Assembly: GCA_964016885.1 (NCBI GenBank)
Contig: OZ024741.1
Location: 28,210,001-28,274,000, forward strand
Direction: 5' to 3'
Length of the DNA stretch: 64,000 nucleotides
Source of the DNA: Eledone cirrhosa
Taxonomy: Eukaryota
Shown here piece after piece: positions 36,640 through 58,530 of the stretch (positions are counted from its first letter, which is position 1; every line of letters starts with the position of its first letter). The translations under genes and the position numbers were made by a program. Under the pieces are notes generated by a model. It made no database searches and was not told the DNA's origin. It saw nothing but the letters and a program-made list of their open reading frames with translations.

Positions 36640-36709
36640 GATTGACTTTGTTAGTTTCAGAAGATCCCGTTAAGGGTGAAAGCAGCGATTCTTTGCTTAA
36701 ACTTTAATC
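36640..36709 (+). ncRNA. Type I hammerhead ribozyme, family D (U4A core, CUU triplet, stem I with large bulge)
   Basis: GATTGA-CTTTGTT-AGTTT-CAGAAGA-TCCCGTTAAGGGT-GAAAGCA-GCGATTCTT-TGCTT-AAACT-TTAATC. Confidence 0.72.
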
Positions 36710-36864
36710 TGTTATTTTAATAAATATTTGCTCTACGGTTCTTATATATTTGATATATATTTATCCTTATCGAGCCCTCTTTGGATTTTAGTCTTCAAAT
36801 TTATTATTATTACTATATATATATATATATATATATATATATATATATATATATATATATATAT

Positions 36865-37460
36865 ATATTTGTATATTTGTTTTCCAAGGTTTTTGATATG
36901 AAATCGTGTGTCGAAACAAATATTGTTATACTTCGGGAGGGTCATATTATTTTAATAATATTGCCAGAAATAATAACAGAACACACTCACTGTTTGGGTG
37001 GTTCTCTCTTCTGTATCTTTTATATCTCCATAGTTAATTTATTTGGCAAACAATGTTTATCACTGAGTGACCAACGGTTAAAAATACAGATATAAATATA
37101 TATATATATATATAGTCTAACAAAGTTCTTTCGTTCCACATTTGCAACATCATCAGTGGTACTATTATGTTCCCTCCTATTGTATTGTATTGTAATGTCT
37201 ACGCCATTTTTATTTTATTTATTTATTTATTTATTTATTTATTTATTTCTTCTTGTCTCCGTCTGTACTAATAAGAAATGTGTTATATGTAAAGTAAACT
37301 CCCAGATAAACTGTAAAACTAGAAATGTAGTCTATAGCATAGGATGTACAGAGGGTACTTGCAGAAACATGTCAACAACATACATAGGCGAGACAGCTCG
37401 TAGCATAGGTGAAAGAATAGACCAACACTGGGGGGAACTAAAAGGACAAAAAAACGGTTC
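36865..37460. mobile_element. PLE remnant: inverted 3' UTR/pLTR (minus) joined to a short GIY-YIG fragment (37259-37458, plus) of the 11425 family
   Basis: CTNKKCVICK..NCKTRNVVYSIGC..YIGETARS. 36880-37250 is the reverse complement of sequence similar to 12200-12585. Confidence 0.8.
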
Positions 37461-38204
37461 GGAAATAGCTGTCGAAACGGCTTGAGCTCTGACGTCGGGG
37501 TTCTGACTCTTTTCCTATTACCCACTCTACTACCCAAAGTATCGAGTACTCTGGTGCGTTATGGTCCACCTGGTTCCTTACCACACTTCCTTCGTAATAT
37601 ATATATATATATATATATATATATACATATATATATATATATATAATTATTATGTAAGCAGCGATTCTTTGCTTAAACTTTAATCTGTTATTTAAAAAAA
37701 TAAATATATATACATATATTATATATATATATATTATATATATATATATTATATATATACTATATATATACATATATTATATATATATTATATATAAATA
37801 TATTATATATATATATTATATATATAAAAAAAAAATATATATATATATTATATATATATAATATATATACATATATTATATATATATAATATATATATAT
37901 ATATATATATATATATATATATATATATATATATATATATATATATATATATATATATATATATATATATATATATATGTATGTATATACATATATATGT
38001 ATGTATACGTACATACATATATGTATACAGAGGTACAGTAGTATGTATATATATACATACATGCACACATATATATATACACGTACTGGTTTACCGAACA
38101 TTTATTATAATGCTCGTTTTTTTTGTAAACAAACAAACAGCCCGAATTACGCCGTACAGTGTTTAGGCAACCACGTCACCTTTTTGTTCAACACTGACAC
38201 AGGA

Positions 38205-38247
38205 ACGATGTACTAGTTTCAAGCTTATTAGCTATCGTCAGCATCGT
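38205..38247 (-). ncRNA. Minimal type I hammerhead ribozyme, family G (element ~38080-38400)
   Basis: ACGATG-CTGACGA-TAGCTAATAAGCTT-GAAAC-TA-GTA-CATCGT. Palindromic ACTAGT. Confidence 0.88.
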
Positions 38248-55620: not shown

Positions 55621-55654
55621 TATATATATATATATATATATATATATATATATA

Positions 55655-56665
55655 TATTAAGATAAGCAGAACAAGTAAAATTCAATCAATCTTTTAAAAT
55701 ACATTAAAAAAAATATAATATAAATATTTACCTCTCCTAGTGGCCCTTACCGATAAGTTTCGCTTGGATGGATTTTTGATGGATTTTTGATGGATTTTCG
55801 ATGGATTTTTGATGGAAAACCAAAGCTCATCAGAGAAGCATTTTCCTTTCCTAGGGCTAAACGTCCCAGGAACGACAAAATATATAACCTCCTGCCAGCA
55901 AATAAAGGTCTGAAAGGTCGTAAAAGTGACCCGTATGTAAACTGGACCGAAGTAAAAGTGGGAAAATCAAAGACTTGCTGTCTACAATTACTACTAAAAA
56001 AAAATAGCAGCTAAATAGAACAACAGATTTGTTCTCAACATGACGGAGAAAATGATTGAAGTTAATATGTACAGGGATACTAGGTACCCCCAGAAATACA
56101 TAGGTTGTCTATGATTCAAGGTTGTTCAATGGTATTAATTTGATACACCAGAACATTTTTTTTAATGTATTTTAAAAGATTGATTGAATTTTACTTGTTC
56201 TGCTTATCTTAATATTAAAGTTCTGGTGTATCAAATTAATACCATTGAACAACCTTGAATCATAGACAACCTATGTATTTCTGGGGGTACCTAGTATCCC
56301 TGGACATATTAACTTCAATCATTTTCTCCGTCATGTTGAGAACAAATCTATTGTTCTATTTAGCTGCTATTTTTTTTAGTAGTAATTGTAGACAGCAAGT
56401 CTTTGATTTTCCCGCTTTTACTTCGGTCCAGTTTACATACGGGTCACTTTTACGACCTTTCAGACCTTTATTTGCTGGCAGGAGGTTATATATTTTGTCG
56501 TTCCTGGGACGTTTAGCCCTAGGAAAGGAAAATGCTTCTCTGATGAGCTTTGGTTTTCCATCAAAAATCCATCGGATTTATGAGGTTTTACAAAGCGAAA
56601 CTGATCAGTAAGGGCCACTAGGAGAGGTAAATATTTATATTATATTTTTTTTAATGTATTTTAAT
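55655..56665. mobile_element. Retrozyme-like inverted/permuted ~500-bp unit with two HHRs (55742-55839 minus; 56534-56616 plus)
   Basis: TTCT-CTGATGA-GCTTTG...CAAAGC-GAAAC-TGATCA-GTA-AGGG. 56220-56665 is the reverse complement of ~55695-56154, and 56155-56214 of 55655-55714. Confidence 0.85.
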
Positions 56666-57761
56666 ATATATATATATATATATATATATATATATATATA
56701 TATATATATATATATATATATATATATATATATATATATATGTGTGTGTGTGTGTGTATTTAAGTACATATACTTGTGTTAATATCACATCCAGTCTCTT
56801 GTGAAATAAGAGTTGTAGTATTTCATTTTCATACATACATACACATATACACACACATACATAATTAATACACACATACACACATGTACTTACATACATG
56901 CATACATAGACACATACATACACACATACATACACACACACATACATACACATATATACACATATACATACACACATATACATTCATACACACATATACA
57001 TAGACACATACATAGACATATACATACACATGCCTACATACACATACATACACATGAATACACACATAATAGATCCATACATACTTAATGCATACATATA
57101 ATACATACAGATATACATACATACACACACATATAGATACATACACACACATATACATACATAGACACACATATACATACACACACAAACACATACATAC
57201 ACATACCTACATACACATTCATACACATATATACCTACAAACATACATAGATACATACATACTTAATGCATACATATACATACATACACACACATATACA
57301 TACATACACATACATACATACATACATACACACATACATACACACATATATACACACGCATATACATACACACATACATACACACGCATATACATACACA
57401 CACATATACATACACACATATACATACATACATACATACATACATACATACATACATACATACATACATACACACATACATACACACACACACATATATA
57501 CATACACACATACATATTTATGAAAACTCGAAATTTATTTGGGAAAACATAATAATCACACAAAAGCAACATTTTAATCTTCTATATAAGATCTTTCTAT
57601 TTCCATTATTCTGTATGAACCAAATAAGAAGCCATCTTATATTTAACTTATTGTTATAGTGAGAGGCATTGTTATTTAACTGTGTTCACATTTAACAGTG
57701 TATATGAGCAGTTCTCATTGCTTTAATAAAAAATATATAAATTACTGTAATCTGTTATATC

Positions 57762-58530
57762 ACAGATTGAGTTAAAAACTCAAAATAGTCTTTTACAATT
57801 AAATAGCTCAAAGAAGGGAATCTTTCCGAGCCGTGTAATATAATTGGATATATGAGACGGATGAACACAAATATAACTATACATGTGTTCCGATTGCAAA
57901 TGACCAAGTTAGCTAGGTTGAAAAATATTAATTTAAAACAATATGGTTTGCTTGACTCGATTTAACGTAATAAATCAGTAAAAATAACAAACCTATATCG
58001 GGCAAATAGCCTATGATACCCGGACAGACATAAATCTGTTTCGCAAGAATTATTAAGTGAAAGCTAGAATTCCTGTGCTCTTCTGCGGGTACCCAGGAAA
58101 ATTCGTACCTTTCATTTCGAAGGATCTAAGCCGACTGAACGATGCGCGGGTATAAACGCACATGTTACAGCGCCTAACGCGTCCCATACTCATGCCACTA
58201 AAAATAGCAGCTGGGTTTATGAGACTAAAGTTAGCTCTACATACATACGGAGCCGAGAATATCATAGATTGAATTAAAAACTCATAATAGTGTTTTACAA
58301 TTAAATAGCTCAAAGAAGGGAATCTTTCCGAGCCGTGTAATATAATTGGATATATGAGAGGGATGAACACAAATATAACTATACATGTGTTCCGATTGCA
58401 AATGACCAAGTTAGCTAGGTTGAAAAATACTAATTTAAAACAATATGGTTTGCTTGACTCGATTTAACATAATACACCAATAAAAATAACAAACCTATAT
58501 CGGGCAAATAGCCTATGATATCCAGACAAA
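57762..58530 (-). mobile_element. Retrozyme-like partial tandem repeat, period ~500 bp
   Basis: 57765-58028 is repeated at 58265-58528; contains the HHR at 58016-58092. Confidence 0.8.
58016..58092 (-). ncRNA. Type I hammerhead ribozyme (U4A core, 5-bp stem III)
   Basis: GTACCCG-CAGAAGA-GCACAGGAATT...AATTCTTGC-GAAACAGA-TTTATG-TCTGTC-CGGGTAT. Confidence 0.78.

Follow-up and report, generated by a model that had tools for sequence, protein, structure and literature searches.

Hammerhead ribozymes lie in the pseudo-long terminal repeats (pLTRs) of Penelope-like elements (PLEs), and those of the Hydra clade are described as having type I stem order, a position near the 3' end of the element, (TA)n insertion targets, a frequent U-U pair flanking stem II and a palindromic stem III (Craig et al. 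2021, PMC8557442). In File S2 of that study, U occupies core position 4 in each of the 26 Hydra rows. Natural core variants in PLE pLTRs were described by Cervera and de la Peña (2014, PMC4209133), where the only one named in the text is U3-A8, with low, dimer-dependent activity in vitro, and a U4C hammerhead is known as a single variant of a viroid, being much slower in vitro and sufficient in vivo (Ambros and Flores 1998, as cited in PMC3088659). Non-LTR retrozymes, which lack an open reading frame (ORF), are tandem units with one type I hammerhead that are likely mobilised by PLEs (PMC7229834; bioRxiv 10.64898/2026.07.22.740005). Here we describe type I hammerhead motifs in which U4 is replaced by A or C, found in a window of 64,000 nt of the 3.0 Gb Eledone cirrhosa genome (contig OZ024741.1, positions 28,210,001 to 28,274,000) and carried by a PLE family that we call D, by a second PLE at 16–23 kb of the window, and by a short unit near position 58016. 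In the mobile templates this change is fixed; it recurs among lineages and seems to be under constraint and, on balance, we expect that the variant motifs would still cut their own RNA, more slowly than canonical hammerheads.

These motifs share with the described Hydra-clade hammerheads their position, targets, stem order and U-U pair and, in the families with C4, the palindromic stem III. However, two Hydra families here fix A4 or C4, family D combines a monomer-type stem III of 5 bp with a bulged stem I, and the element at 16–23 kb has a stem II region of 81 nt. Unlike the single viroid variant, C4 is fixed here in thousands of copies and several retroelement subfamilies. The unit near 58016 resembles the non-LTR retrozymes but differs from them in its length of 502 nt, in occurring mostly as partial tandems and inversions, in its two fixed 3' ends and in its A4. 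U4C itself, and the U-U pair in Hydra elements, are already known from nature, while a mostly title-level survey of the literature found no report of a natural U4A hammerhead and U4C solely in the viroid; we therefore regard a natural A4 core as provisionally new. U4 is treated as invariant by hammerhead search descriptors, so that elements such as family D, with more than 15,000 copies, would be passed over as lacking one. If the A4 and C4 motifs do cut, they would reveal where the core can be loosened in natural hammerheads and how this is made good, and variants and their canonical relatives would form matched natural pairs for asking what hammerheads do for PLEs, whose insertion needs uncut RNA.

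Hammerhead motifs with A4 or C4 in the window

The window is rich in type I hammerhead motifs, with 23 matches when position 4 is left unconstrained, four of which have A4 compared with 0.13 per shuffled window (30 shuffles). The 3' portion of a family D pLTR, together with its ~100-nt tail, occupies 36470..36830 (+) and ends in (TA)n; in this family, 3' ends fall 29 and 107 nt beyond the predicted cut. The hammerhead of this copy, at 36637..36712 (+; C3 at 36658), has a CUU site with the predicted cut after 36698, and a stem I of 5 bp followed by a U-rich bulge of 7 nt and a further 9 bp. An inverted copy at 33399..33474 (−; C3 at 33453) forms one of two inverted arms (33384–33641 and 36470–36727), and we count it as decayed because it combines A4 with G8A and a mismatch that disrupts stem II. 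Two more A4 copies lie at 10450..10525 (−; C3 at 10504) and 10544..10602 (+; C3 at 10548), the latter 5'-truncated at an inversion junction. All four copies have C3-A4-G5-A6, the CUU triplet, a U10.1-U11.1 pair and the bulged stem I of 5 plus 9 bp.

The fifth A4 motif, at 58015..58093 (−; C3 at 58085), has a GUC site and lies in an ORF-less unit of 502 nt (57757–58258) preceded by a partial tandem copy (58259–58532), the whole spanning 57757..58532 (−). Compared by eye, this unit and family D have the core alone in common. The C4 motifs belong to the pLTR of the element at 16–23 kb and lie at 23093..23207 (+; C3 at 23100; GUA site), 19553..19667 (+; C3 at 19560; 2.1-1.1 pair lost in this copy) and, in inverted orientation, 16501..16615 (−; C3 at 16608). 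In all three, the region of stem II spans 81 nt and stem III is minimal and nearly palindromic. They were matched only by a descriptor permitting a bulge in stem I, and are not independent since they are parts of a single composite insertion.

A first-pass annotation of the window had proposed most of these features, and inspection of the sequence bore out CAGA at positions 3–6 in all named family D copies, the CUU triplet and bulged extended stem I of that family, and CCGAAGA in the three pLTR copies. For the 58016 motif the CAGAAGA core and the 5-bp stem III (plus a G-U pair) also held, but stem I has 8 bp and not the 7 bp given there.

In all eight motifs three stems surround the core in type I order, and C3-G8, G5, A6, A9, G12, A13, A14, A15.1-U16.1 and an NUH site are present, apart from the G8A of the decayed copy. 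We class them as hammerhead variants and not as canonical members since the U4 of the CUGA turn is replaced. None of the eight was among the best 150 of 242 Rfam matches in the window; within those 150 the only hammerhead match was a canonical motif at 43375–43446 (HH9), with a score under the gathering threshold.

Position 4 in genomic copies

Exact genome-wide matching of a 34-mer spanning the family D core gave 15,495 copies with A4 and 156 with another letter, G, U and C each being present among 100 listed of the 156, a share that fits random mutation of ~1% since insertion. For the pLTR pattern, with 755 matches, all 100 listed have C4, and the 58016 pattern had 468, with 98 A4, one U4 and one C4 among the 100 listed; the reversed control patterns of these three counts had no genomic matches. 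An additional C4 clade with a short stem II, comprising several subfamilies, had 4,892 matches and C4 in 97 of the 100 listed, and here C4-G5 forms a CpG whose decay would restore U4, yet C4 is kept. These counts support the earlier proposal that the variant was already in the mobile template and did not arise by post-insertion decay, and the same check of position-4 frequency found a U4 majority in none of these families. In DNA contigs of one organism, which are possibly the assembly's own source, core positions 3–9 had no second letter at 2% or above; two other organisms each yielded a single, nearly identical contig and were left aside.

An apparent canonical U4 subfamily of family D (40 matches) was rejected, as most of the 20 loci inspected were inversion junctions or truncations that mimic a canonical core. 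Head-to-head inversion junctions within the family D core (L242–L261) yield canonical-looking U4 cores and are a pitfall for family counts. Another seeming A4 family (10 matches) lies inside a canonical hammerhead, in its stem II. We also rejected a coupling between position 4 and A7, since there are subfamilies with C4-U7 and with A4-U7, and U4 occurs with A7 in a canonical family that has a member at 32165 (−) in the window and 5,931 genomic matches.

Copy number is thus not sorted by core type, and this bears on whether slower cutting is itself an advantage. It could be that slowing was selected, with A4 or C4 acting as a brake by which template RNA is spared and the families can amplify. 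The largest family counted has A4, C4 persists despite CpG reversion pressure, no U4 subfamily of family D was found in the 20 loci inspected of 40 matches, and Craig et al. (PMC8557442) suggest that hammerhead loss may ease amplification. However, the canonical family reaches 5,931 copies while two variant families have just 755 and 468, and canonical cores also occur with a long, monomer-competent stem III, so the variant does not follow the need for a brake; we consider selection for slowness decidedly unlikely. A wider version, in which PLEs use position 4 as an evolvable rheostat and lineages have independently fixed A4 or C4, slowing cutting and sparing uncut template, is speculative and in our view unlikely.

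Elements that carry the variant motifs

Family D is autonomous and its hammerhead lies in the pLTR; copies elsewhere bear a frame of up to 712 amino acids with reverse transcriptase (RT) and GIY-YIG domains, and this ORF stops ~935 nt upstream of the hammerhead. By eye against the motif definitions of PMC8557442, the 712-amino-acid frame has RWR, DKT, CxCX5C, CxxC and CxH. The element at 16–23 kb has RWK, DKI, CxCX5C, CxxC and CxH by the same comparison, in an ORF at 19898..22322 (+) with RT followed by a C-terminal GIY-YIG domain; it is broken into two frames, for which there was no Pfam match, and a partial inverted copy lies at 17263–19344. The two RTs are 41% identical, and both elements have a pLTR in partial tandem, an inverted 5'-truncated copy, a tail and a (TA)n target. 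In these sequence features both match the Hydra clade of PLEs.

In a tree of endonuclease fragments (14 rows, all from this genome), the element at 16–23 kb pairs with an element that has a canonical core (support 96/93), away from family D; most remaining branches of this tree are unresolved and it holds no reference Hydra proteins. Likewise, a sister pLTR 73% identical to that of the window element carries U4 (one copy), and the closest relative found for family D (52% amino acid identity) has a U3-A8 core. Given these relatives, independent changes at position 4 are likely for family D, for the 58016 lineage and for one or more of the C4 lineages. The 58016 unit is likely a non-autonomous element mobilised by PLEs.

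The U3-A8 core swap was seen in four families (L201:938, L141, L231 and L223), one of them in the Hydra element closest to family D. At 34825–36469 (+), the window has an RT with a restriction-like endonuclease motif, presumably a fragment of a CRE-like long interspersed nuclear element. It is inserted into the family D pLTR region, and other copies of family D are without it.

Fixed core changes and apparent constraint on the fold

We scanned the core in 329 stretches (1.78 Mb) with one change permitted at any core position, taking at least three copies at two or more loci as a cluster. There were 33 clusters: 25 with C3-G8, four with U3-A8, and four small ones that combine U3-A8 with a second change. 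Among the 25 C3-G8 clusters, 20 were canonical, three had C4 and two had A4, and none had a fixed change at position 3, 5, 6, 8, 9, 12, 13, 14 or 15.1; a reversed-sequence control gave 38 matches and no clusters. This pattern argues that the fold has been maintained with position 4 tolerated, and does not thereby show the tuned cleavage proposed in the first-pass annotation; the evidence favours tolerance over deliberate tuning.

Stem changes in the 58016 lineage point the same way. At pair 15.4-16.4, its 48 hammerheads have G-C in 28, A-U in 15 and other combinations in 5, and A4 is present in 27 of the 28 G-C copies, all 15 A-U copies and 47 of the 48 overall. At pair 2.2-1.2 they have C-G in 33, U-A in 8 and others in 7. 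Between the majority sequences of the unit's two subfamilies, 70 of 502 positions differ, whereas the 13 core positions are all identical. In family D, 14 positions vary, with another letter in 10% or more of the 59 copies; of these, 12 are upstream of the hammerhead, one is downstream and one is in the bulge, and none is a paired or core position. In the C4 clade a self-complementary stem III is retained across four different sequences. Taken together, these sequence patterns support, indirectly, constraint on the variant fold and the remaining core.

They also bear on the possibility that a damaging mutation in a master copy merely hitch-hiked to high number while the ribozyme decays neutrally. 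Thousands of copies can stem from one master element, family D is young (3% divergence) and PLE cutting is dispensable in vitro (PMC11167929). On the other hand, in the core scan several lineages altered the same position and none another, compensatory changes built up in the 58016 lineage once A4 had become fixed there, and C4 is common to several diverged subfamilies; we therefore hold neutral decay to be very unlikely.

Insertion ends

Copies end past the predicted cut site, by 29 or 107 nt in family D, 185 or 266 nt in the 58016 family and 53 nt in the pLTR of the window element, so the templates that were integrated held an uncut or re-joined 3' hammerhead. Genomic 5' ends of family D showed no excess at the cut site (48, versus 49 at a control position), and those of the canonical family were similarly flat (18 versus 16), hence this test cannot separate cutting from no cutting. 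In one tally the 5' ends seemed to peak at the cut, but we discarded this peak, as it arises from loci fetched for that very pattern. In family D, 5' truncations seem commoner within the core, at positions 3–10 (265, 406 and 125), than near the cut (48 and 49), where the patterns also demanded the tail.

The fold could instead be retained as a platform for binding the PLE protein or starting reverse transcription, with cutting negligible or irrelevant and position 4 the least critical for shape. Consistent with this, RNA of ribozyme-dead PAc inserts normally in vitro (PMC11167929), family D copies terminate 29 nt past the cut, right after stem I, and the cut site is not enriched for their 5' ends. 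Against it, G8, G12 and the other core bases were never fixed as variants in the 25 C3-G8 clusters and the dimer-type palindromes of stem III are kept despite sequence change, while the 5'-end test was equally flat in the canonical family and so uninformative. We regard this account as rather unlikely, though it deserves to be kept in mind.

The 5' truncations at A6 touch on another account of A4, that C3-A4-G5 also serves as the acceptor of an intron in the pLTR, whose splicing would take away the ribozyme's 5' half. A pyrimidine-rich stretch precedes both A4 cores, donor-like sites lie ~490 nt upstream in family D (L128:6284) and at the 5' end of the 58016 unit, and the Penelope intron of D. 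virilis ends within hammerhead helix I (PMC4209133). However, 406 copies start at A6 compared with 265 and 125 at the positions nearby, under patterns of differing stringency, no common upstream exon and no spliced copy was found in 30 family D loci and four 58016-family loci, and C4 is left unexplained. We give the splice-site account hardly any credence.

Predicted cleavage by the variant motifs

We return to the reading that the variant hammerheads probably still cut, and do so slowly. The catalytic bases G8 and G12 (PMC9901934) and the core bases A13, A14 and A15.1-U16.1 are intact in the variant motifs. Position 4 is contacted by the phosphate of N7 (PMC3088659) and would itself be neither general acid nor general base; since it would have no such role, a change there should cost rate and not chemistry. 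A PLE would be reverse-transcribed from RNA with an intact 3' hammerhead, and because the template RNA must keep this hammerhead uncut, a slower ribozyme could be tolerated, whereas a dead one would be purged. In line with this, unprocessed RNA is the substrate for insertion of one PLE, the ribozyme of which cuts only with protein (PMC11167929); the element's own protein perhaps binds and aids the variant hammerhead.

Different features may support the variant core in each family. From sequence and fold, family D is predicted to make a contact between loop II and stem I, its U-rich bulge lying 5 bp from the core opposite an A-containing loop II, and its U10.1-U11.1 pair is of the kind best tolerated as a mismatch (PMC3088659). 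Long stems may play this part in the 58016 family, and a dimeric stem III in the C4 families. In the ViennaRNA ensemble, tertiary contacts being ignored, the hammerhead accounts for a fraction of 0.03–0.13 in the 58016 motif and of 0.02 in the pLTR. We also considered whether A4 pairs with upstream sequence as an off-switch, and rejected this; such a helix occurs in some family D folds, but the hammerhead fraction is similar with U4.

Several observations weigh against retained, constrained cleavage. Ribozyme-dead PAc mutants insert normally in vitro (PMC11167929), so cutting may not be under selection, and in the deep mutagenesis of a type III hammerhead reported in PMC9901934 activity was low for each single change made within the CUGA turn. 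In family D the hammerhead is a minor ViennaRNA fold, at a fraction of 0.002 or less with tertiary contacts ignored. The covariation counts represent few independent events because the copies are related, pair 2.2-1.2 of the 58016 lineage falls on a CpG, and the core identity between its two subfamilies is not significant alone (P 0.14). As for the core scan, the variant families in it were fetched deliberately, and a blind 800 kb gave nine families, of which six were canonical, one had A4, one had U3-A8 and one was doubtful. Finally, the four small U3-A8 clusters carry a second change at position 9, 5, 12 or 4, although one of them is a mis-parse of family D and three are doubtful.

Other features of the window

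Further hammerheads in the window depart from the usual form in other ways. One at 27072 (+), like L025:845, has C4-U7 and a stem III of 8 bp, and a look-alike elsewhere has U3-A8; another single C4 motif was seen at L090. Structured stem II inserts of 80–110 nt, which exceed the length allowed by the usual descriptors, occur at 23107–23187, 10900 (−) and 25749 (−). Protein fragments of other PLE families lie at 13014–15510 (−), 23210–24437 (+), 54248–54697 (+) and 32372–32932 (−), the last with a GIY-YIG match and lying upstream of the canonical hammerhead at 32165 (−). A short element at 1742–1913 consists of long terminal inverted arms flanking a CA/TA microsatellite, and its matches to Rfam microRNA models were under threshold.

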